Shown here in pieces: positions 3,835 to 19,590 of a stretch of DNA of 64,000 nucleotides. The translations under genes and the position numbers were made by a program. Every line of letters starts with the position of its first letter. Within the stretch, counting starts at the first letter, position 1. The DNA lies in the NCBI GenBank assembly GCA_023264445.1, contig JAHFMN010000001.1, positions 69,928 to 133,927 of the forward strand. The letters run 5' to 3'. Source of the DNA: Candidatus Kaiserbacteria bacterium (GTDB lineage: Bacteria > Patescibacteriota > Minisyncoccia > Phycocordibacterales > Phycocordibacteraceae). The notes under the pieces are model-generated. The model searched no databases. It worked only from the letters and a program-made list of their open reading frames with translations, and was not told the DNA's origin.

Positions 3835-4122
3835 TTGTCCACCTACAGTATATCGAAATGGTTTGCCGTCGCTGTTGCAGTCATCGTAGTAATATTGTTG
3901 ATACTGTGCCTGACCGCAATTATGCAGCGCGACGCCTTCAAGAAACAACGGGAAAATCTCTCGACAGCGTATAAATCGCATCTTGCGAACGAATACATCC
4001 ACAACATCTGCAAGATCGAATTCATCGGAGACAGTCCTCGAGTCATCAGCCCTCAGGATGCAGCCTGTGTCGACGGTGTACGGATGCGAGTCGGGAATGA
4101 GGTCGATGCGATAGCAAAATAG
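3835..4122 (+). CDS. small membrane protein (TTG start)
   Basis: Strong RBS AAAAGGAGG 5 nt upstream. One N-terminal TM helix ([22 protein letters not shown]). Terminator downstream. Confidence 0.55.
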
Positions 4123-4153
4123 CAAATAAGTAATGTCGTTCGACCTGCGAATC

Positions 4154-4194
4154 GCGACCGTCTGGAGAAAACCCGGACGGTCGCTTTGTTTTAT
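4154..4194 (+). terminator. rho-independent terminator
   Basis: 9-bp stem GCGACCGTC/GACGGTCGC followed by TTTGTTTTAT. Confidence 0.55.
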
Positions 4195-4255
4195 ATGCGA
4201 ATGAGCCCGTGCTATACTCATACCGTACCTGCCCCGCCATGGGCAGGATTTGGGT

Positions 4256-6910
4256 ATGAAGAAGATACAAACCACCAAAGAAACCTCCAAAGAGCACCAC
4301 CATAAGCACGGGAGCGACTGGCTCCGTGTGAAGGGCGCACGCACCCATAATTTGAAAAATATTACGGTGGAGATGCCGCGTGGGGCGATGACGGTCATCA
4401 CCGGCCTCTCGGGAAGCGGGAAGTCCTCGCTCGCCTTTGACACCATCTTTGCCGAGGGTCAGCGGCGCTATGTGGAATCACTCTCCGCCTATGCGCGGCA
4501 ATTCTTGAATCAGATGGCGAAGCCGGACGTGGACGAGATTTCAGGCCTCTCCCCAGCCATTTCGATAGATCAGAAGAGTCGTTCTAATAACCCGCGCTCA
4601 ACGGTCGCGACCGTGACCGAGATTTATGACTATCTGCGCGTGCTCTACGCGCGCGCGGGCCAGCCATACTGCATCCACCACGACGTACCTATCGTGCGAC
4701 TCTCCAAAGAAGAGATGATTAAAATGGTCTTCGCGCGCGTAGAAGCGAAGCGGAAGGGCACGAGTCAGAGTGTGATGGGTGTCGCGGTGGATAAAACCGC
4801 CGTCACTATTTACGCGCCGGTCGTCGTCGGGAGAAAAGGCGAATACTATCAACTCCTCTATGATCTCCTCGGAAAGGGGTATGAACGAGTGGTGGTGGAT
4901 GGAAAGCTCCACTCGCTCCGCGAGAAGATAACGCTGGAGAGGAATAAGGTGCACAGTATCGACGCCGTCGTAGACTCTATTTACGTTTCTGAATTTGCGC
5001 GGTCCACTGCGGCCGCGCGCGAGCGCCTCTCCGAGGCGCTTGAGCTCGCGCTCAAGCAGGCCGACGGCCTAGTGAAGATTCAGCATGCCGATGGTACGAC
5101 CGAGACGCTTTCGTCAAAGTTTATCTGCCCTGAAGACGGCGCATCATTTCCAGAAGTAGAACCACGACTCTTCTCCTTCAATTCACCATACGGTGCATGC
5201 CCGGCCTGCCACGGCCTCGGCACCGAATCGCTCTTCTCTGAAGAAGTCTGTCCGGTCTGCGAGGGGAAGCGCCTGCGCCCCGAAGCACTGCGCGTCTACC
5301 TGAAGGGTAAAAAAGATAAGACGCTTGGGATAAATGTCGTGGACTTCACGAATATGTCGATTCGCGAAGCGAAGGAGTTCGTTGACTCTATCGAATTATC
5401 AGAGATGAAGTTCGATATTGCCGCGCCAATTCTAAAAGAAATAGACAGCCGCCTGACCTTCATGCTCAACGTCGGGCTGGATTATCTCACGCTGAACCGC
5501 TCGGCCGCGACACTCTCCGGCGGTGAGGCCCAGCGCATCCGCCTCGCCTCCCAGCTCGGGAGCGGGCTCACGGGCGCTCTCTACGTGCTAGACGAGCCGA
5601 CTATCGGGCTCCATCAGCGCGATAATGACCGTCTGATACAGACGCTCCTTGTACTCAAAGAGCTCGGGAACACCATCGTCGTCGTGGAACACGATGAGGA
5701 TACTATCTATTCTTCAGACTATATCGTCGACATCGGACCGGGCGCGGGTATTCACGGCGGCACGGTCGTTGCTTCTGGCTGGCTCGATGACCTGCTCACT
5801 GCAAAAGAGAACGAGAGCGGCTCGACGACACTTGGCTACCTGCGCGGCGAAAAAGAAATTGAGATACCCGAGGAGCGCCGCACAAGCGAGAAAGGGTGGA
5901 TCAAGATACGCGGCGCCACGCTCCACAATCTGGTAAATCAGAATATCGATGTGCCGCTCGGGAAGCTTACCTGCATCACGGGCGTCTCGGGGAGCGGGAA
6001 GTCCACTTTCCTCTACGATATCCTGCACCGCAATATTGAAAAGCGATTTACCCGCCGCGAGTCGAAGCTGGAGCATATAGCCTCACTCACGGGCACTGAA
6101 TACGTCGGCCGCGCCGTACTCATCGACCAGTCGCCCATTGGCCGCACACCGCGCTCCAACCCGGCGACGTACACAGGCGCCTTCACCCATATCCGCGACC
6201 TCTTCGCTGCCACTCCTGAAGCACGTGCGCGAGGATGGAAGCCCGGGCGCTTCTCCTTCAACGTTCCGGGTGGCCGTTGCGAAGCGTGTCAGGGCAATGG
6301 CTCGATCGCAGTCGAGATGCACTTCCTGCCGACCGTCTACGTCACCTGCGATATATGCATGGGCAAGCGGTTCATGAAGGAGACGCTCGAGATCACCTAT
6401 CGCGGGAAAAATATCTACGAAGTGCTCCAGATGACGATTGAAGAAGCCGAGAAATTCTTCGGTGATATTCCCGCCATCAACGACCGCTTGATGAGCTTGA
6501 ACTCAACCGGGCTCCAGTACCTCACTCTTGGTCAGAGTGCGACGACGCTCTCGGGCGGCGAGGCCCAGCGCGTGAAGATAGCGAGCGAGCTCTACCGCTC
6601 CATGACGATGAAGACCATCTACCTCCTCGATGAGCCGACGGTCGGCCTCCACTACGACGACGTGAAGAAGCTTATTGAAATCTTGCAGGAGCTCGTGCGT
6701 CGCGGCAATTCCGTCGTGGTCATCGAGCATAATCTTGATGTCATCAAGAGCTCCGATTACGTCATCGACTTCGGTCCTGAAGGCGGTGTGGGCGGAGGGA
6801 AGGTGATAGCGAAGGGCACGCCCGAAGAAGTCGCCGACACCAAGGACTCCTACACCGGCGAATACCTTGCGAAGGCATTACATCGTCATGCAAAGAAGCG
6901 AACTAAATAA
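4256..6910 (+). CDS. uvrA: excinuclease ABC subunit A
   Basis: Two ABC ATPase modules (GLSGSGKSS and GVSGSGKST) with LSGGE signatures. AGGA lies 8 nt before the ATG at 4256. The ORF-track start at 4250 is a TTG. Confidence 0.93.
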
Positions 6911-8151: not shown

Positions 8152-9117
8152 ATGCACACCGTCGTCGGAGTATTGCGGGGAGGTCCAAGCCGTGAGCATG
8201 AAGTATCGCTCAAGACTGGTGCCGCGATGCTCGCGAACCTTCCGGAGGAACGATACTCGCCACGAGATATCTACATCGATCGTCAGGGCGTGTGGCACGA
8301 TCGCGGCCGTCCGACACCGCCCGAGCGCATATTGCGGCAGATAGACGTCGCGCTCATAGGCCTTCATGGCGAATACGGAGAGGATGGGGGGGTGCAAAAA
8401 CTCCTCGAACGTTTCGGCGTCCCATACACGGGCGCGGATTCCTTCGGCTCGTATCTTGCGATGCATAAGCTCATGGCGAAACAGCGTGCGGAGGAAGCAG
8501 GATTACTTACTCCAGAGTTCCGCTATATCGAAGACGTAAAGGATATTGAGGCGGGAGCGCAAGACATCATCCGCTCGCTCCATCAGCCGGTTGTTGTGAA
8601 GCCCGCTATGTGGGGCTCTTCGGTCGGCGTTTCTATCGTGGGCGGCTATGCTCCAGTGCTTGCCGCCATTAAAAAACTCTTTGCAGATGGTGCGCAGAGC
8701 GTAGTCATCGAGGAGCTCATCCGTGGGAAGGAAGCGACTGCCGGCGTGGTCGAGGGCCTGCGGGGCGAAGCACTCTACGCGCTCCCGCCGATAGAGATTC
8801 TTCCTCCCGAAGATGACTTTTTCTCATACGATGCGAAATATTCGGGAGTAACTCGCGAAATCTGCCCAGGGAATTTCTCTCGTGTCGTCACGGAAGAGCT
8901 CCAGAGGGCGGCGAAGATAATGCATCGCACGCTCGGCCTGCGCCACTACTCCCGAAGCGATTTCATCGTTGCCCCGAAGGGCGTCTACTATCTGGAAACC
9001 AATACGCTCCCCGGACTCACGACTGAATCGCTCATGCCCAAGTCGCTCGCCGCGGTCGGCGTCAAGTTCTCTGACTTCCTGTCGCATCTGGTCAATCTCG
9101 CGCTTGGTAGAAACTGA
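8152..9117 (+). CDS. ddl: D-alanine--D-alanine ligase
   Basis: MHTVVGVLRGGPSREHEVSLKTG N-terminus and an ATP-grasp body. The ATG at 8152 follows the uvrC stop. Confidence 0.88.
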   Translation: MHTVVGVLRGGPSREHEVSLKTGAAMLANLPEERYSPRDIYIDRQGVWHDRGRPTPPERILRQIDVALIGLHGEYGEDGGVQKLLERFGVPYTGADSFGSYLAMHKLMAKQRAEEAGLLTPEFRYIEDVKDIEAGAQDIIRSLHQPVVVKPAMWGSSVGVSIVGGYAPVLAAIKKLFADGAQSVVIEELIRGKEATAGVVEGLRGEALYALPPIEILPPEDDFFSYDAKYSGVTREICPGNFSRVVTEELQRAAKIMHRTLGLRHYSRSDFIVAPKGVYYLETNTLPGLTTESLMPKSLAAVGVKFSDFLSHLVNLALGRN

Positions 9118-9187
9118 TTTTTACAGTGCGAGAGACGCCCTCCCCGCAGTTTTTTATTTAAAGATACCGTGCTACTCTATCGCAGTT

Positions 9188-9260
9188 GGGCCCGTAGCTC
9201 ACTTGGTAGAGCGCCTCATTTGCAATGAGGAGGTAACCGGTTCGATCCCGGTCGGGTCCA
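9188..9260 (+). tRNA. tRNA-Ala (anticodon UGC)
   Basis: Cloverleaf GGGCCCG acceptor, D arm GCTC/GAGC, anticodon stem CCTCA/TGAGG with loop TTTGCAA, and T arm ACCGG-TTCGATC-CCGGT. It has G3:U70 and A73. CCA is not encoded. Confidence 0.85.
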
Positions 9261-9312
9261 CATACATCTCAGTTAAGTGCGATGCTCCACAGCGGGCTGA
9301 TATACTGCACGC

Positions 9313-10086
9313 ATGGAACTCATCGCAGGAGATAAGGAGCTCGAGGCGCTCAATGCACAATTAGATGACCCGAATCAGTTGCAGGCGTACAAGACTCCGC
9401 ACGACAACTATCATCCGCTCTTCCTTCCGCGTCTTCTCGGCCGCGTCTTGGTCGGCTGCGGGAACCTGGTGTATGGGCATGAGCCGTCGTATCTGAAATT
9501 CCGGTCGATAGAAATCGTCGCGCGCGTGCCATACCAATCATGGTCTTCTGCGGTCTATACGCTCCTCACCATGTTCTATGCCGATGAGCACAAGGCCATA
9601 CGATTCTCAAACGTTTCCCGCTATGCGCGCATCGCGCAAGATAACGAGACGATGCACGTCGTAGTCATCTCCCAGCTTGCGCGCACAGAGGGGAGAGCAG
9701 GGCTCATACGGCATACGCTTCTGCCGATGTTCTTTGCGTTCTTTTATTTCTGGGCATCCTACATCCTCTATCTGATGCGGCCTCGCTGGTCTTTCGAACT
9801 CAATTATCTCTTTGAACAGCACGCATTTGACCAATATAATCGCTTTCTTGAACAGTACCGCGAAGAACTGAAAAAGAAGCCGGCTGAAAGCGAATTCCTC
9901 ACCTGGTACGGGCGCAATCCGCGCTCTCAATTTGAGTTTTTCCAATCCGTCCGCAATGACGAACTGATCCACCGCAATCAGTCCGTCCGTGCGGTGAATA
10001 CAGAAGCGGATGCTTACCGTGTACATTCTTTGAAATTTGTTGCGATTGGCGCTGTTATCGTTCTGCTTGTTCTTATTCTGATATAA
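9313..10086 (+). CDS. alternative oxidase (AOX/PTOX)-like di-iron carboxylate protein with a C-terminal TM helix
   Basis: Segments NETMHV (like NERMHL), RNDELIHRN (like RADEAHHR), FEQHA (like LEEEA) and IEIVARVP match the four AOX iron-ligand helices. A C-terminal hydrophobic helix is present. Confidence 0.6.
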   Translation: MELIAGDKELEALNAQLDDPNQLQAYKTPHDNYHPLFLPRLLGRVLVGCGNLVYGHEPSYLKFRSIEIVARVPYQSWSSAVYTLLTMFYADEHKAIRFSNVSRYARIAQDNETMHVVVISQLARTEGRAGLIRHTLLPMFFAFFYFWASYILYLMRPRWSFELNYLFEQHAFDQYNRFLEQYREELKKKPAESEFLTWYGRNPRSQFEFFQSVRNDELIHRNQSVRAVNTEADAYRVHSLKFVAIGAVIVLLVLILI

Positions 10087-10145
10087 GAAGAAAGTCTCCG
10101 CACGTCTGGGAATCCGGTCCCGCATCTGGTATGGTACGAGCGTGC

Positions 10146-10219
10146 GCGCTCTTAGCTCAGTTGGTTAGAGCGTTCGCCTCACACGCGAAAGGTCATAGGT
10201 TCGAATCCTATAGAGCGCA
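10146..10219 (+). tRNA. tRNA-Val (anticodon CAC)
   Basis: Acceptor GCGCTCT/AGAGCGC, D arm GCTC-AGTTGGTTA-GAGC, anticodon loop CTCACAC, and T arm ATAGG-TTCGAAT-CCTAT. Confidence 0.85.
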
Positions 10220-10236
10220 CAAGAGGTGTTCTATGT

Positions 10237-10307
10237 CGGGCCGGAGTATGCCGGTAGTACATGCGCTTCGGGTGCGTAAGGACCGAGTTCAATTCTCGGC
10301 GGCCCGA
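10237..10307 (+). tRNA. tRNA-Pro (anticodon CGG)
   Basis: Acceptor CGGGCCG/CGGCCCG, anticodon stem TGCGC/GCGTA with loop TTCGGGT, and T arm CCGAG-TTCAATT-CTCGG. The D stem is short (3 bp). Confidence 0.75.
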
Positions 10308-10328
10308 CAAAGAACATCTCTCAAGAGG

Positions 10329-10402
10329 CGGGCTATCGTATACCGGTAGTACGCATGCATGGGGTGCATGTAGACCGGGTTCGATTCCCGGTAGCCCGAC
10401 CA
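10329..10402 (+). tRNA. tRNA-Pro (anticodon GGG), CCA encoded
   Basis: Acceptor CGGGCTA/TAGCCCG, anticodon stem CATGC/GCATG with loop ATGGGGT, and T arm CCGGG-TTCGATT-CCCGG, followed by ACCA. Confidence 0.75.
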
Positions 10403-10430
10403 AATATCGTCATGCTAGAATCGTGCGCAC

Positions 10431-10563
10431 GGGCCATTAGCTCAGCTGGTAAGCCGGTCAAAATCCGAAACCCAGTCCGGCTTCCCGACGGCACTTGCCT
10501 CGCATGAACAATATGAAGACATATGTTCATGCACTCGGCTCGCTTGCCGGTAGAGCGCGTTAT
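10431..10563 (+). pseudogene. tRNA-Ala 5' fragment with a ~100-nt structured insertion in the D-loop
   Basis: 21 nt GGGCCATTAGCTCAGCTGGTA are identical to the 5' end of the tRNA-Ala(CGC) 170 nt downstream. They are followed by a 101-nt insert with two hairpins, then GAGCGCGT matching tRNA positions 22-29. No 3' half or T arm follows. Confidence 0.6.
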
Positions 10564-10600
10564 TGTGATCCTATAGGTTTTCAGTATCCTGTAAGTAATC

Positions 10601-10673
10601 GGGCCATTAGCTCAGCTGGTAGAGCGCGTCATTCGCATTGACGAGGTCAGCGGTTCGACTCCGCTATGGTCCA
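10601..10673 (+). tRNA. tRNA-Ala (anticodon CGC)
   Basis: Acceptor GGGCCAT/ATGGTCC with G3:U70, D arm GCTC-AGCTGGTA-GAGC, anticodon loop TTCGCAT, and T arm AGCGG-TTCGACT-CCGCT. Confidence 0.85.
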
Positions 10674-10698
10674 CTGGGCTTCAAAGGGAAACAATCGC

Positions 10699-10769
10699 GG
10701 GCCTATGGTGAAGCGGTATCACGCGTCCATGGCATGGACGAAGTCGGGGTTCGACTCCCCGTAGGTCCA
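10699..10769 (+). tRNA. tRNA-Ala (anticodon GGC)
   Basis: Acceptor GGGCCTA/TAGGTCC with G3:U70, anticodon stem CGTCC/GGACG with loop ATGGCAT, and T arm CGGGG-TTCGACT-CCCCG. Confidence 0.8.
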
Positions 10770-10822
10770 CAAAAGTACGAAGTAGTTTTGTGGACCTATG
10801 CGCCATGCCTGCGCATGGCGCG
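10762..10822 (+). terminator. two consecutive perfect hairpins after the tRNA array
   Basis: GGTCCACAAAA-loop-TTTTGTGGACC is an 11-bp stem that reuses the tRNA 3' end. GCGCCATGC-CTGC-GCATGGCGC is a 9-bp stem. There is no T-run, so function as a terminator or processing site is uncertain. Confidence 0.35.
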
Positions 10823-10928
10823 GCGGGGAGTCGAATGCCGGAGCGATGTTCGGTCAGCAGGCCGAACCGCGAGGCGGGGCTGCGACCGAGCCGAGTGACG
10901 ACGAGGCGAGAGTTGTAGCCGACTCCTG

Positions 10929-10957
10929 TGACTTTTACTGCGTTAACGCGCTATACT
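10929..10957 (+). promoter_or_regulatory. sigma70-like promoter TGACTT-N17-TATACT
   Basis: -35 and -10 boxes with 17-nt spacing, about 35 nt upstream of the 10991 gene. Confidence 0.35.
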
Positions 10958-10990
10958 GAATCTGCTAGACACTACCCACATAACTAATCT

Positions 10991-11464
10991 TTGTCTCTCA
11001 TGGACCTCGAAGCGATCAGAAAGCACGGAATAGTCTCCTATCTCGCGAAGGAGAAAATGGCAATTCTTTCCACTCATGCATCCGATGGCTCAATTGATGC
11101 GATGACGGTGTTTTTTATGGCCGACGAAAACCTCGACTTCTTCTTCATGACAAAAGTGGATACGAGGAAATATCAAAATATGGCCGCTAATCCGCACGTG
11201 TCCCTGACGATTTCAAATGCCGAGACGTTAGAGACCGTAGAAGCAAAAGGGACCGCAAGCGTGATGACGAGCCCGAAAGACATCACGGACCGTATGACCT
11301 CCATCATAAATAAGGGTAAATACGAAGGAATGCCCTGGGCTCCGCCAATCGCCAAGCTCAATGCAGGACAGTATGTGATTATTAAGGTCGTGCCCACGTG
11401 GCTTCGGTACGGTGTATTTCTCAATGAGTTCCCGAAGGGGGAATATTTCAAACAGATTATTTAG
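10991..11464 (+). CDS. pyridoxamine 5'-phosphate oxidase-like FMN-binding family protein (general stress protein 26-like)
   Basis: Split-barrel PNPOx-like sequence pattern. The ORF-track start is TTG; an ATG lies at 11000. Confidence 0.6.
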   Translation: MSLMDLEAIRKHGIVSYLAKEKMAILSTHASDGSIDAMTVFFMADENLDFFFMTKVDTRKYQNMAANPHVSLTISNAETLETVEAKGTASVMTSPKDITDRMTSIINKGKYEGMPWAPPIAKLNAGQYVIIKVVPTWLRYGVFLNEFPKGEYFKQII

Positions 11465-11487
11465 CTTCGTAATTGCACTTGAATCTT

Positions 11488-11886
11488 ATGCTTAAAGAAT
11501 TCAAACAGTTTCTCCTGCGCGGGAATGTCGTCGATCTGGCGGTTGGTGTCGTGGTCGGCGCCGCGTTCGGGACGGTGGTCTCTGCGCTTGTCGCCGACCT
11601 ACTTACGCCACTTATCGCGGCTATAGCGAGGGTGCCAGACTTTAGCGGGCTTTCGTTTACCCTCAACGGAGCTAAGTTTATGTATGGCCATCTGATAAAT
11701 ACCCTCATTTCGTTCCTACTTATAGCGACCGCGGTGTTCTTCTTCGTGGTGAAGCCGATGAATCTCTTGGTCTCCCGCTCGCATAAGGAGCCACCTGCTG
11801 ATCCCACTACGAAGAAGTGCCCGGAATGCATAAGCGAAATCCCGCTCGACGCCAAGCGTTGTAAGTACTGCGCACAGACCGTATAG
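11488..11886 (+). CDS. mscL: large-conductance mechanosensitive channel with a C-terminal CxxC...CxxC zinc-ribbon tail
   Basis: MLKEFKQFLLRGNVVDLAVGVVVGAAFG is the canonical MscL TM1. The C-terminal helical bundle is replaced by CPEC-x10-CKYC. Confidence 0.85.
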   Translation: MLKEFKQFLLRGNVVDLAVGVVVGAAFGTVVSALVADLLTPLIAAIARVPDFSGLSFTLNGAKFMYGHLINTLISFLLIATAVFFFVVKPMNLLVSRSHKEPPADPTTKKCPECISEIPLDAKRCKYCAQTV

Positions 11887-11887
11887 A

Positions 11888-11930
11888 AAAGTAAGACCCG
11901 CCGGAAGGCGGGTCTTACTTTTACTACTTG
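11888..11930. terminator. bidirectional rho-independent terminator
   Basis: AAGTAAGACCCGCC-GGAA-GGCGGGTCTTACTT perfect hairpin with a T-run on the + side. It lies between convergent mscL and the SWIB gene. Confidence 0.65.
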
Positions 11931-11937
11931 TCTAGAT

Positions 11938-12189
11938 TTAAGACAAGTGCGCCGAGACGAGCTTCGTCATCTCGAACATCGAGACTTCGCTCTTGCCGCC
12001 GAATATCGGCTTCAGTTTGTCATCGGCCATAATATTCCTCTTGTTCTTTGGATTCTGGAGATCGTGCTTCTTGATATATACCCAAAGCTGCTTAACCACT
12101 TCAGTTCTCGGCATCGGACCCTGTCCTACGACCGCTTCCAGTTCGGAAGAGAGCTTAAGCGGCTTTGATAAAGCTGAATTTATTGCCAT
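11938..12189 (-). CDS. SWIB/MDM2 domain protein
   Basis: ELEAVVGQGPMPRTEVVKQLWVYIKKHDLQNPKNKRNIMADDKLKPIFG...FEMTKLVSAHL closely matches bacterial (chlamydial-type) SWIB proteins. The start is set at the internal Met (MAINSAL). The upstream in-frame Mets overlap a TGGTATATA -10-like element. Confidence 0.8.
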   Translation of the reverse strand: MAINSALSKPLKLSSELEAVVGQGPMPRTEVVKQLWVYIKKHDLQNPKNKRNIMADDKLKPIFGGKSEVSMFEMTKLVSAHLS

Positions 12190-15787: not shown

Positions 15788-16732
15788 ATGGATAAACCAA
15801 AAACAACGCCAAAAGATTTCTTCCTGTGGGCCGGGGCGATGGTTGCATTCTATTGGGCCATCATTGCCTACACGTTTCTTATTTTTGATTACATCAACTA
15901 CGCGCTTCCGAACGCACTTACGTATTATCCAAGCGATCCCTATCAGAGCGGCATCAGCTACGAAATGGCTTCAGTAATCGTTCTCCTACCGCTCTATATG
16001 TTCCTCATGCAGCTCATTCGTCGTGGCATTGTTCTCGATGCGTCCCGTAAAGAAATCTGGGTGCGCCGCTGGGCGCTCATTCTCACGCTCTTCGTCGCCG
16101 GCGTGGCGATAGCAGGAGACCTCATCACGCTTCTCACCACCTTCCTCAATGGGGAAGAACTCACGATGGCATTCATTCTCAAAGTGCTCACCATCTTCCT
16201 TATTGCAGCAGGAGTCTTCATGCACTTTACTGCGGACCTCAAGGGATACTGGGAGCTGTTTCCAAGCCGAAAACGTCTCCTTGGTGTCAGCGTCGGAATG
16301 CTCGCACTCGGCACGATTGTCGCAGGCTTCTTCATCGTAGGTACGCCGGCCGAAGCACGTCTTGCGCGCTTTGACACACAGAAGGTAAACGATTTGCAGA
16401 ACATACAGTCGCAAGTCGTGTACTACTGGCAGGCGAAGCAGCAACTGCCGATGACGATCACTGACCTCAATAACTCTCTCTCCTACGGCCCAGTACCGGT
16501 GGATCCCCAGACAGGGAAGTCGTACGTCTACCAAACGGTCGGGGCACTCTCCTTCAAGCTGTGTGCAGTGTTTAACGCAGAAAGCCGCACAGGTGTCATG
16601 CCCATCGAAAACCGCCCGATTCCGGTAGGGGAGAAGGGTCTCCCGGATAATTGGCAACATGACGCCGGTCAGGTGTGTTTCGACCGGACTATCGATCCGA
16701 GCTTCTATCCACCGCTCACGAAGCAGCTGTAA
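15788..16732 (+). CDS. hypothetical membrane protein (N-terminal multi-TM region plus C-terminal soluble domain)
   Basis: Six predicted TM helices followed by a domain of about 110 aa. No confident family assignment. Confidence 0.6.
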   Translation: MDKPKTTPKDFFLWAGAMVAFYWAIIAYTFLIFDYINYALPNALTYYPSDPYQSGISYEMASVIVLLPLYMFLMQLIRRGIVLDASRKEIWVRRWALILTLFVAGVAIAGDLITLLTTFLNGEELTMAFILKVLTIFLIAAGVFMHFTADLKGYWELFPSRKRLLGVSVGMLALGTIVAGFFIVGTPAEARLARFDTQKVNDLQNIQSQVVYYWQAKQQLPMTITDLNNSLSYGPVPVDPQTGKSYVYQTVGALSFKLCAVFNAESRTGVMPIENRPIPVGEKGLPDNWQHDAGQVCFDRTIDPSFYPPLTKQL

Positions 16733-16755
16733 CAGCCGGTTACGGTATCGGCCAC

Positions 16756-19590
16756 ATGGCGTACGACCACACAGAGATCGAGAAAGCAGCCCGAGAGAAA
16801 TGGGCCAGTCTTAATCTCTACACGGTCGACTTCTCTGATAATGTAAAAGACCCGTATTATCTCCTTGTCGAGTTCCCGTACCCCTCGGGTGATCTCCATA
16901 TCGGGCATTGGTACGCGTTTGCGGTGACCGACATCTATGCGCGCATGCTGCGCGCGCGGGGAAAGAATGTTCTGTTCCCAATCGGATTCGATGCGTTCGG
17001 ACTGCCCGCGGAAAATGCAGCTATCAAGAATGGCCTTGATCCGAAGGAGTGGACGTATAAGAACATGGAACGCATGCGGCAGCAGCTGACAACGATGGGC
17101 CCGTCATTTGATTGGTCAAAAGAAGTTGTGACCTGCGAACCGGGGTACTACCAGTGGACGCAGTGGCTCTTCGTGAAGCTTTTTGAGCAAGGACTTGCCG
17201 AGCATCGTGAAGCAGCAGTCAAATGGTGTCCGAAGGATCAGACGGTGCTTGCAAACGAACAGGTCATCGACGGCTGCTGTGAGCGCTGTAGTACGCCAGT
17301 GGAAGAGAAAAGACTGACGCAGTGGTTCCTCAAGATTACCGACTATGCCGAGCGACTCCTCACCGGTCTCGATGCGCTCCCATGGCGCGAAGAGATAAAG
17401 GAAGCACAGCGTGCATGGATAGGGAAAAGCGAAGGCGCGTATCTGGAATTTCCAATCGTTGGTCGCGATGAGAAGATTAAGGTCTTCACAACGCGTCCCG
17501 ACACGGTGTTCGGTGCCACGTATGCAGTGCTTGCGCCGGAGCACGCGCTTGTCTCGGCGCTGTTGCCTGCTATTTCAAATAAAAAAGAAGTTGAAGCATA
17601 TGTGCATGCCACTGCACAGAAGACTGAACGAGAACGTAGTGAAAACAAAGAGAAGACCGGTGTGAAGCTCGAAGGAGTGAACGCGGTACATCCCGCAACA
17701 AATGAGGAAATTCCAATTTTCGTCGCCGATTATGTCATAGGTTCGTATGGCACCGGCGCGCTGATGGCAGTCCCAGCACACGATGAGCGAGATAGTGAGT
17801 TTGCACAAAAAATGGGCATACCCGTTCGTCAAGTTATTGCACCGCGGTATCACCAGACGACTGAGCCAGGAATCTATCGGCCGGAGGAACCGACCACAGA
17901 AAAAGACGGCATCATCGTCCTCATCAAACACTGGAAGGAAGAGAAATACCTCGGTCTCAAGTGGAAAGAGGTCGCATGGGGAACCCTACTCACCGGCGGT
18001 GTTGACGAGGGACTCACGCCAGAAGAAACGGTGTTCAAAGAAATCAAGGAGGAAACAGGATATCTGCACCTACAGATCAAACAGAAATTCGGAGTCGTCG
18101 ATGGACTCTTCTATCACGTACCGAAGCAGAAGAATCAGCATGTACACGGGCATATGTTTTATGTCGAGCTGAAAGATGGCGAGCAAGAAGCCATCAGCAA
18201 GGACGAATCTTCAAAACACGACCTAGTCTGGCTCACGGTAGAAGAATTGGAAACATTCCTTACGCCCGATACGCACAAACACACCTTGAATCTATTCCGT
18301 AACGGGCCGCAACCGTACACCGGAAATGGCTCTCTTGTCAGTTCGGGCGAATTTTCCGGCCGCGAGAGTGAAGATGCAAAATGGGAGATTGTGAAGCATG
18401 TCGGCGGAGAAAAGACCACTCAATATCGCATTCGGGATTGGCTCGTTTCCCGCCAGCGATACTGGGGATGTCCTATACCGATTGTCTATGATCCTGAAGG
18501 GAAGCCGCGTCCGATCCCGAAGGAGCATCTGCCGTGGCTTCTGCCAACCGATGTAGACTTCACGCCCACCGGCAAGGCGCCACTTGCGTCTTCAAAGGAA
18601 TTGCAGGAGCGCGTGACGAAGCTATTCGGCGAAGGATGGACGCCAGAATACGACACGCTCGATACCTTCGTTGATTCCTCCTGGTACTTCCTCCGCTATC
18701 TTGATCCGAAAGATCTGCATGATTTCTCGGATGCAGCTCTTATGAAGAAATGGATGCCGGTCAACCGATACTCGGGCGGGAGCGAACACACGACGATGCA
18801 CCTTCTCTATGCTCGGTTCTTTACGAAAGCGCTCTATGACCTCGCACTCGTGCCCGTGGATGAGCCGTTTACCGAACGTTTCAATCGCGGACTCATCATG
18901 GGTCCCGATGGACAAAAAATGAGCAAGTCAAAAGGGAACGTCGTGAATCCGGATGAATTTGTGCAGAAATATGGCGCAGATGCCGTACGGCTTTTCCTCG
19001 CTTTCATCGGCCCGTATAACGAACCGGGAAGTTATCCATGGAGCTTGGAAGGCGTTGCTTCCATGCGTAAATTCCTTGAGCGCGTTATGCGCCTCACGGA
19101 ACGGGCTCAAGACGTATCCGAAGTGGGTAATGAACTGCAGCAGGCGATTGCACGGGCAAGCATAAAGGTCTCCAAAGACGGTGATCGATTTAAATTCAAT
19201 ACCGGCGTTGCAGCACTCATGATTCTCGTCAACGAACTTGAAGCTTCCGTAGCTGTGCCAAAAACTGCATTGAGTTCTTTCCTCGTCATGCTCGCTCCTT
19301 TTGCGCCTCATATCGCTGAATACCTATGGGAGAAACTCGGAGGAGAAGGGAGTATCCACCAGCAGGCGTGGCCAGTGTTTGACGCGAGCACTCTTGTCGA
19401 GAGTTCAGCGGAAGTTGTGGTTCAGGTCAACGGCAAGCGGCGTGGCTCGCTCACCCTCGCCACCGATATTTCCGAGGAGGAAGCCGTTCGTGCTGCACGT
19501 GCGCTTCCCGCTGCCGCCGCGGCGCTTGCCGGAAAGGATCCTTCGCGCACCGTATATGTCCCGGGGAAAATCATCAATCTGGTCGGATAA
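16756..19590 (+). CDS. leuS: leucyl-tRNA synthetase carrying an inserted Nudix-hydrolase-like domain
   Basis: HIGH (HIGHWYAF), the CP1 editing domain (TTRPDT...MAVPAHDERD), RDWLVSRQRYWG and KMSKS. In addition there is a ~150-aa insert between the AHDERD motif and SSGEFSG that contains a Nudix box GGVDEGLTPEETVFKEIKEETGY. Confidence 0.92.
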   Translation: MAYDHTEIEKAAREKWASLNLYTVDFSDNVKDPYYLLVEFPYPSGDLHIGHWYAFAVTDIYARMLRARGKNVLFPIGFDAFGLPAENAAIKNGLDPKEWTYKNMERMRQQLTTMGPSFDWSKEVVTCEPGYYQWTQWLFVKLFEQGLAEHREAAVKWCPKDQTVLANEQVIDGCCERCSTPVEEKRLTQWFLKITDYAERLLTGLDALPWREEIKEAQRAWIGKSEGAYLEFPIVGRDEKIKVFTTRPDTVFGATYAVLAPEHALVSALLPAISNKKEVEAYVHATAQKTERERSENKEKTGVKLEGVNAVHPATNEEIPIFVADYVIGSYGTGALMAVPAHDERDSEFAQKMGIPVRQVIAPRYHQTTEPGIYRPEEPTTEKDGIIVLIKHWKEEKYLGLKWKEVAWGTLLTGGVDEGLTPEETVFKEIKEETGYLHLQIKQKFGVVDGLFYHVPKQKNQHVHGHMFYVELKDGEQEAISKDESSKHDLVWLTVEELETFLTPDTHKHTLNLFRNGPQPYTGNGSLVSSGEFSGRESEDAKWEIVKHVGGEKTTQYRIRDWLVSRQRYWGCPIPIVYDPEGKPRPIPKEHLPWLLPTDVDFTPTGKAPLASSKELQERVTKLFGEGWTPEYDTLDTFVDSSWYFLRYLDPKDLHDFSDAALMKKWMPVNRYSGGSEHTTMHLLYARFFTKALYDLALVPVDEPFTERFNRGLIMGPDGQKMSKSKGNVVNPDEFVQKYGADAVRLFLAFIGPYNEPGSYPWSLEGVASMRKFLERVMRLTERAQDVSEVGNELQQAIARASIKVSKDGDRFKFNTGVAALMILVNELEASVAVPKTALSSFLVMLAPFAPHIAEYLWEKLGGEGSIHQQAWPVFDASTLVESSAEVVVQVNGKRRGSLTLATDISEEEAVRAARALPAAAAALAGKDPSRTVYVPGKIINLVG

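Follow-up and report, generated by a model that had tools for sequence, protein, structure and literature searches.

What is the partial copy of a tRNA-Ala(CGC) gene that lies directly upstream of the intact gene, and how did it come to be there? The DNA analysed (the window: 64,000 nt, to which positions refer unless another locus is named) is from a Patescibacteria (Parcubacteria-like) chromosome. The window includes uvrB, uvrA, uvrC, ddl, mscL and ychF, genes for an AOX-like di-iron protein and a PNPOx-like protein, and many aminoacyl-tRNA synthetases. Relatives of the AOX-like protein all come from Patescibacteria/Parcubacteria MAGs. The nearest of these, other than those of the organism itself, share 73-76% identity (genome contigs, metagenome contigs and a 5.8-billion-protein search). 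One of the synthetases, a 971-aa leucyl-tRNA synthetase ORF (16675-19590), has a NUDIX domain match at residues 410-531 (E = 1e-11), right after the editing domain.

The tRNA cluster of the window comprises Val(CAC), Pro(CGG), Pro(GGG), Ala(CGC) and Ala(GGC), with starts at 10146, 10237, 10329, 10601 and 10699, respectively. An Ala(TGC) gene is present at 9188. The gene at 10601-10673 (forward strand) is the only Ala(CGC) gene in the window. It was identified by ARAGORN and matches the Rfam tRNA model RF00005 over its full length (65 bits). The genes for all three Ala isoacceptors carry G3:U70, as had been observed in a reading made from the letters of this DNA before the present analysis (the sequence-only reading). 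None of the three encodes the 3' CCA; Pro(CGG) and Val(CAC) likewise appear to be without it. Pro(GGG) reads ...GACCAAA, and an encoded CCA may be included.

A total of 198 nt lie between Pro(GGG) and Ala(CGC), and the other spacers of the cluster are 16-25 nt long. Within this long spacer the first 21 nt of tRNA-Ala(CGC), GGGCCATTAGCTCAGCTGGTA, are present a second time without mismatch (10431-10451 and 10601-10621). The sequence-only reading had reported this duplication at a distance of 170 nt. The exact repeat is actually 22 nt long, as a preceding C is common to both copies (10430-10451 and 10600-10621, both on the forward strand). A third match to GGGCCATTAGCTCAGCTGGTA with up to three mismatches was not found in the 64 kb, where shuffled sequences are expected to give none. 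[quoted passage not shown]

Beyond position 10451 the upstream copy is interrupted for 101 nt (10452-10552) and then picks up again as GAGCGCGT (10553-10560), in agreement with the sequence-only reading. The second piece is better bounded as 10546-10560, GCCGGTAGAGCGCGT, which corresponds to tRNA positions 15-29 with one mismatch (14/15). The two pieces therefore overlap by 7 nt of tRNA sequence (GCTGGTA vs GCCGGTA), and the insert can be read equally well as 94 nt (10452-10545, forward strand) flanked by an imperfect 7-nt direct repeat, GCTGGTA at 10445-10451 and GCCGGTA at 10546-10552 (6/7 identical). This repeat may be a target-site duplication or, equally, microhomology. The inserted DNA is rich in hairpins. 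In the first, GGTAAGCCGG/CCGGCTTCCC, 10448-10457 pairs with 10477-10486, and the stem includes the D-loop GGTA; the insertion junction falls inside it. The second is CATGAACAATATG-AAGA-CATATGTTCATG (10503-10531), and there is a third, small hairpin at 10491-10500. The two larger hairpins had been noted before, with one C too many in the loop of the second.

When the 94-nt block is removed and the upstream sequence is compared with the tRNA in an ungapped register, positions 1-29 are identical (29/29). Positions 30-47 (10561-10578, forward strand) form a degenerate continuation in the same register that is identical at 9/18 positions (binomial p about 0.02), with all three anticodon bases changed (CGC to GTG). 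Positions 48-69 are at the level of random sequence (5/22). The spacer ends in a unique tail, TTTCAGTATCCTGTAAGTAAT (10579-10599), that is the proximal flank of the intact gene. A gapped alignment of 10561-10600 with the 3' part of the tRNA (from position 30) was no better than with shuffles, and the same is true of the 94-nt block and tail compared with 102 distinct Patescibacteria tRNAs. Neither a T arm nor a 3' acceptor strand follows the upstream copy, as had been stated, and ARAGORN and Rfam identify only the intact gene.

This profile bears on the possibility that the upstream piece is a decayed tandem duplicate, i.e., that the upstream member of a former tandem pair of full Ala(CGC) genes was shortened by its 3' half and gained the 94-101-nt insertion. 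The weak in-register similarity through positions 30-47 could be a trace of such a gene, and paralogous neighbours do exist in the cluster (Pro(CGG) and Pro(GGG) are 72% identical). However, perfect identity over 29 positions is followed by an abrupt drop rather than a gradient of decay, and no similarity to the T arm or to the 3' strand of the acceptor stem is left. Moreover, the nearest comparable genome has a single gene, and at least three separate events would be required. Thus, we consider a tandem duplicate, one of three readings offered from the letters alone, unlikely. The step-like profile fits a recombination breakpoint at positions 29/30 beside a diverged, element-borne tRNA-like arm.

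The source of the window is a metagenome-assembled genome, in which the assembly itself might duplicate part of a tRNA. Yet an independent ENA MEGAHIT contig (L081) is identical over the entire tRNA cluster. In addition, the repeat is only 22 nt long and each of its copies has different, unique flanks. An assembly artefact, a concern raised in the sequence-only reading, is thus extremely improbable.

We compared the locus with that of the closest relative with alignable DNA (L163, GCA_040960175.1), in which the AOX-like neighbour is 75% identical. The gene order there is Val-Pro(CGG)-Pro(GGG)-36 nt-Ala(CGC), and the tRNA genes and parts of the spacers align with the window at the DNA level. 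The Ala(CGC) gene of L163 is uninterrupted, and there is neither an upstream fragment nor an insert. The end of its upstream spacer, ...TGTTAGAATCGCCCGCAC followed by GGGCC, aligns with window positions 10413-10430, TGCTAGAATCGTGCGCAC followed by GGGCC, which is the flank of the upstream fragment. The spacer alignment extends over 10403-10430. The flank of the intact gene, ...CCTGTAAGTAATC followed by GGGCC, is unrelated to the L163 spacer. Because it is the flank of the upstream fragment, and not that of the intact gene, that aligns to the L163 spacer, the comparison places the upstream fragment at the ancestral start of the gene. It indicates that 170 bp (10452-10621 or, equivalently, 10430-10599) were gained in the window lineage relative to L163, the one informative outgroup. 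In formal terms L163 could instead have lost the insert, but this would need precise excision.

The spacer is mostly diverged, and among its few conserved blocks is an extended -10-like box, TGCTAGAAT (10413-10421, forward strand; TGnTAGAAT in the window and L163), 9 nt upstream of the fragment. From its position and conservation, this box probably served as the ancestral promoter for both Ala(CGC) and Ala(GGC). The sequence-only reading had treated the upstream piece as the copy. Given that this piece is at the ancestral gene start, behind a conserved promoter-like box, this polarity has to be turned around, with the original sequence upstream and its replacement at the 5' end of the intact gene.

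The comparison of this cluster among relatives revealed other differences. The L163 Ala(CGC) gene (1188-1263) ends in CCA. Both it and the window gene have an Ala(TGC)-type body with a long D-loop, AGCTCAGCTGGTAGAGC, and the Ala(CGC) genes of L001 (4870-4941) and L008 (2194-2265) have a different body with a short D-loop, AGTAAAGTGGTATTAC. This difference suggests that one isoacceptor gene was replaced by a remoulded copy of another within the window/L163 clade. Pro(CGG) is flanked in the window by a 22-nt inverted repeat (10222-10243 and 10300-10321) that adds about 15 bp to the acceptor stem. It is kept in L163, where its single A.A mismatch is G.G, and it may be a processing helix. The spacers between tRNAs of the cluster are also gene-gain hot spots: a probable HIT-family gene separates Ala(CGC) from Ala(GGC) in L001, and an aminotransferase does so in L163.

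The reading that we favour, to which we assign a probability of roughly 0.5, is that the region is the footprint of a DNA insertion into the tRNA-Ala(CGC) gene, of the integrase type, by an element that is now a remnant or was a miniature. The evidence for insertion is the exact 22-nt repeat, its presence in an independent assembly, the empty site in L163 and the sharp boundary at positions 29/30. The ancestral gene would have followed tRNA-Pro(GGG) after a short spacer with the TGnTAGAAT promoter-like box. About 170 bp would then have entered after position 21, where the D-loop has its 3' edge. This DNA would have carried or duplicated, at its 3' end, the C and positions 1-21 (repeat copy 2, 10600-10621), so that the gene was regenerated at 10601-10673, and the original first 21 nt would have been left stranded upstream at 10431-10451. 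This would be the attL/attR-type arrangement of a site-specific element that integrates at the D-loop, the 5'-side sublocation. Its body may have been deleted since, or the element may always have been a miniature without a recombinase. A remnant or miniature is suggested by the short distance between the repeats (148 bp) and by the lack of an integrase. The footprint is real but of a fairly ordinary type, and is neither a new RNA gene nor an intron. Of the three readings that had been proposed from the letters alone, it is thus the scar of an element that is favoured by the uninterrupted L163 locus and the tDNA-insertion layout.

The inner structure of the inserted DNA is step-like in its identity profile, and the 94-nt block and the 40-nt tail resemble no tRNA and have no second copy in the sequences searched. 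From these features we infer two nested events. In the first, a partial duplication or insertion, a breakpoint at positions 29/30 would have left the fragment of positions 1-29, the diverged tRNA-like stretch of positions 30-47 and some 21 nt of flanking foreign DNA. In the second and later event, the 94 nt would have been inserted into the D-loop of the stranded fragment with the 7-bp duplication.

The classical sublocations for integration into tRNA genes are the anticodon loop, the T-loop and the 3' end. Integration of an element splits the gene; the element restores it, and the displaced fragment marks the other end (PMC4383910; PMC9897764). The configuration rule of Islander for such footprints puts 5' fragments upstream of the gene and 3' fragments downstream (PMC4383910; PMC9897764). 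Klebsiella arg2 islands use a D-loop sublocation and integrate upstream, at the 5' end of the gene, and their repeat consists of the 5' acceptor strand, D-stem and D-loop (bioRxiv 10.1101/2020.11.02.365908). As in these footprints, an intact tRNA gene in the window is accompanied by a cognate partial copy on the same strand, here a 5' fragment 170 nt upstream, and the repeat has exactly the composition and configuration of that of arg2. As for tDNA islands, a relative has an uninterrupted site, in this case seen in L163 alone. Unlike tDNA islands, the interval measures 148 bp rather than kilobases and is without integrase or cargo. It holds a nested second fragment and a hairpin-rich 94-nt insertion, and the host is a member of the Patescibacteria. 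Thus, we file the feature as a footprint or remnant of the known kind of tDNA insertion, and not as an element.

Searches for the element itself gave no candidate. There is no ORF in the insert, no gene was called in the 148-bp interval, and the 170 bp contain no known RNA. Terminal inverted repeats are absent from the insert (the best end-to-end complementarity is 5 nt). The spacer, insert and tail, compared by blastn-short with the window and 180 related loci, gave only self matches and 11-13-mers. A megablast of 9000-12000 against a phage database matched nothing, and two pattern scans of viral contigs, one for the hairpin and one for the junction, returned 0 matches. No integrase, transposase or small GIY-YIG nuclease was found among the scanned window ORFs of at least 90 aa. 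Because the inserted DNA matches nothing else that was searched, it is only the geometry of the site that points to a mobile origin. The 94-nt block resembles a MITE in being small, non-coding and hairpin-rich, with a 7-nt imperfect direct repeat, but unlike MITEs it lacks terminal inverted repeats, and the window and the 180 related loci contain just the one copy. A CTGTAAG motif that precedes tRNA copies was considered as a shared element end and set aside, as it is too short to test. A 16-nt inverted repeat (10532-10547 and 10882-10897, 14/16 complementary) brackets both Ala genes of the cluster. One arm is at the right end of the 94-nt insert and the other is downstream of Ala(GGC); a rough estimate of its chance occurrence is about 0.1.

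A related locus indicates that this cluster does attract mobile DNA, as an ORF with Resolvase and Recombinase domains abuts tRNA-Ala(GGC) of the same cluster in L164. This organism encodes an AOX-like protein that is 74% identical to that of the window. The ORF (3837-5636, reverse strand; 599 aa) has Resolvase, Recombinase and Zn_ribbon_recom Pfam matches, and the same is found in L165 and L001. Its 3' end crosses tRNA-Ala(GGC), which is on the opposite strand (4074-4145, forward). The ORF is consistent with a large serine recombinase, and an integrated element probably sits at that tRNA.

What speaks against an element is that the 148-bp interval is far below the size of any autonomous one. 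In addition, the two repeat copies are identical, including lineage-specific acceptor bases, so local duplication fits as well as an element circulating within the same species. The main rival is a local accident of replication or repair with no mobile element involved. Microhomology-mediated template switching or fold-back synthesis, in tRNA DNA that is prone to form hairpins, would have duplicated the first 21-29 nt, with filler DNA copied in as well. The GCTGGTA/GCCGGTA sequences at the junctions of the 94-nt block would provide 7 nt of microhomology, and the junction lies within a hairpin stem that uses the D-loop GGTA, as it does in two related loci (L134 and L019). Neither a recombinase nor terminal inverted repeats were found, and all events detected are short-range. 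Inverted partial tRNA copies just downstream of tRNAs, in the window and in other loci, are explained less well by integration. On the other hand, the 64-kb window contains no donor for the 94-nt or the 40-nt sequence on either strand. Also, the strict placement of 5' fragments upstream and 3' fragments downstream, with junctions centred on loops, is what site-specific integration predicts. We regard such an accident as possible, but it is not the explanation that we would choose.

If the conserved TGCTAGAAT box is the promoter, the insertion would have given the intact gene a long leader. Transcription from the old promoter would start about 2-3 nt before the stranded fragment, and pre-tRNA-Ala(CGC) would have a structured 5' leader of about 170-172 nt to be removed by RNase P at 10601. 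The intact gene probably carries a 170-nt leader. A scan for sigma-70 promoters flagged nothing within the insert, and a terminator-like match at 10541-10557 is no more than shuffles give. In the predicted minimum free energy structure of the precursor, the partner of the 3' acceptor strand is the upstream copy of the 5' strand. As the 5' strand is present twice, this pairing is a thermodynamic tie and not evidence of function.

The fold of this leader is relevant to the proposal, also made in the sequence-only reading, that the fragment and its hairpins are a structured RNA. This would be a 5' leader or small RNA under selection, with a role such as that of a processing platform or of a decoy for the 3' acceptor strand. 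The sequence 10431-10600 folds better than shuffles (z = -3.0), as does the whole precursor (z = -3.6). The precursor structure has the acceptor pairing described above, and similar leaders of fragment plus hairpins recur at other Patescibacteria tRNAs. However, a search of 10380-10700 against Rfam 15, at gathering thresholds and at E values up to 10, returned the real tRNA and two chance hits only. The sequence is absent from L163, the nearest relative, and is not conserved in the relatives fetched. The recurring cases have no common sequence, and the alternative acceptor pairing follows automatically from the exact repeat. A functional RNA is therefore decidedly unlikely, and we assign no function to the fragment or the insert.

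We also considered an intervening sequence, with 10431-10451 as a 5' exon and removal of 10452-10621 from the RNA. The predicted precursor structure does bring the upstream strand to the acceptor stem. As in the tRNA group I introns of the same phylum, extra DNA interrupts a tRNA gene and is missed by tRNA finders. Yet no group I or group II model matches, and 170 nt is too small for the core of either ribozyme. Known introns are in the anticodon loop rather than the D-loop. In addition, the 5' part is present twice in the window and the complete gene follows, so splicing is not required. The tRNA finder and Rfam checks that had been proposed, including those for tmRNA and group I introns, thus identified nothing but the intact tRNA, with no tRNA or tmRNA called by ARAGORN in 10431-10600. 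An intron is very improbable.

Is the window an isolated case? We surveyed the Patescibacteria loci fetched up to that point for same-strand partial copies (at least 14 nt exact) within 800 nt of a tRNA. Short-range partial copies are present in 10 of 106 distinct tRNA contexts (about 9%). They occur in L019 (7800-8420, reverse strand), L134 (380-660), L051 (2900-3150, reverse strand), L083 (2100-2430), L002 (1-560, reverse strand), L043 (1850-2650) and L076. In these ten contexts all 5' fragments are upstream and all 3' fragments are downstream; there were only two opposite-strand matches. Junctions cluster in two loops. The window, L134, L019 and L051 have theirs in the D-loop, and the 3'-side cases (L019, L083, L002, L043 and L076) in the T-loop. 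Others are in the anticodon region (the second fragment of L019, L106 and the tRNA-Trp loci). The tRNA-Ser(GGA) gene of L019 has two upstream fragments, which extend to positions 18 and 43, and one downstream 3' fragment. As in the window, the junction in several loci is within a strong hairpin that uses the D-loop GG. No interval over 900 nt was seen, in loci of 2-9 kb that could not show large islands. The short range of all the partial copies in related loci (under 900 nt) could reflect a local mechanism that does not involve an element.

Other unusual structures were found beside tRNA genes in these loci. Downstream of tRNA-Ala(GGC), positions 10771-10900 of the window form a very strongly folding block (z = -7.3) that is absent from L163 and L001. 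In this lineage-specific block a perfect palindrome, GCGCCATGCCTGCGCATGGCGC (10800-10821), has on one side an inverted copy of the tRNA 3' end (10782-10798) and on the other an inverted T-arm copy (10824-10840). Inverted T-arm copies follow tRNAs in L019, L083 and L002 too.

In five loci a gene for an 81-84-aa GIY-YIG protein (Pfam E = 2e-16) lies between a 5' half of tRNA-Trp(CCA) and a complete tRNA-Trp gene (L106 447-815, L171 1120-1680, L175 1130-1520, L177 1040-1650 and L178 1130-1510). The 5' half ends at the anticodon (..TCTCCAA), and four distinct homologues are 58-73% identical to the L106 protein. The gene is preceded in all five loci by a conserved palindrome, CCCCGCAGCTGCGGGG (CCACGCAGCTGCGTGG in L175), and CGAATCC, and in L106 its stop codon overlaps the start of the full tRNA-Trp gene. 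This arrangement looks like a tRNA-Trp-specific cassette. Downstream of tRNA-Trp in L171 (1580-1680) there are two more tandem units, each with GGTCTCCAA, the palindrome and the tRNA 3' end CGAGTCCTGGCACTCCCGCA. Each unit is a tRNA-Trp copy in which positions from about 38 to 54 are swapped for the palindrome, and together they look like an array. SegB of phage T4 is described as a GIY-YIG endonuclease in a tRNA gene region that cuts within that region (PMC2330249), and the placement of the GIY-YIG genes in the related loci resembles that of such free-standing homing endonuclease genes in tRNA gene clusters. Unlike these cassettes, the window insert has no ORF and no similarity to them (the L106 GIY-YIG protein had no tblastn match in the window), so that any link would be by analogy only.

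These observations raise the tentative and somewhat improbable idea that tRNA genes of Patescibacteria are recurrent targets of an undescribed class of very small insertions (about 50-300 bp), or of template-switch products typical of the phylum. Such insertions would be hairpin-rich and without a recombinase, would be located at the D-, anticodon- or T-loop, and would carry a partial copy that regenerates the gene. Some might be associated with the 81-84-aa GIY-YIG nuclease. The 170 bp of the window would then be one member of the class, and not a decayed conventional island.

For annotation, the upstream piece is a tRNA-gene fragment and should not be recorded as a gene, an intron or a small RNA. 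As an insertion footprint, the locus is an example of a tRNA gene entered on its 5' side, at the D-loop, in a host that is not one of the Enterobacteria; an insertion on this side must displace the promoter. The rarely reported D-loop position at the 5' side, the very small size and the nested structure add modest interest. The quick survey found partial copies in about 9% of the tRNA contexts of the loci covered, which suggests that Patescibacteria commonly have partial tRNA duplications at short range. If this holds for entire genomes, it matters for counts of tRNA sets in such reduced genomes and for the question of which mobile or mutational processes act there.
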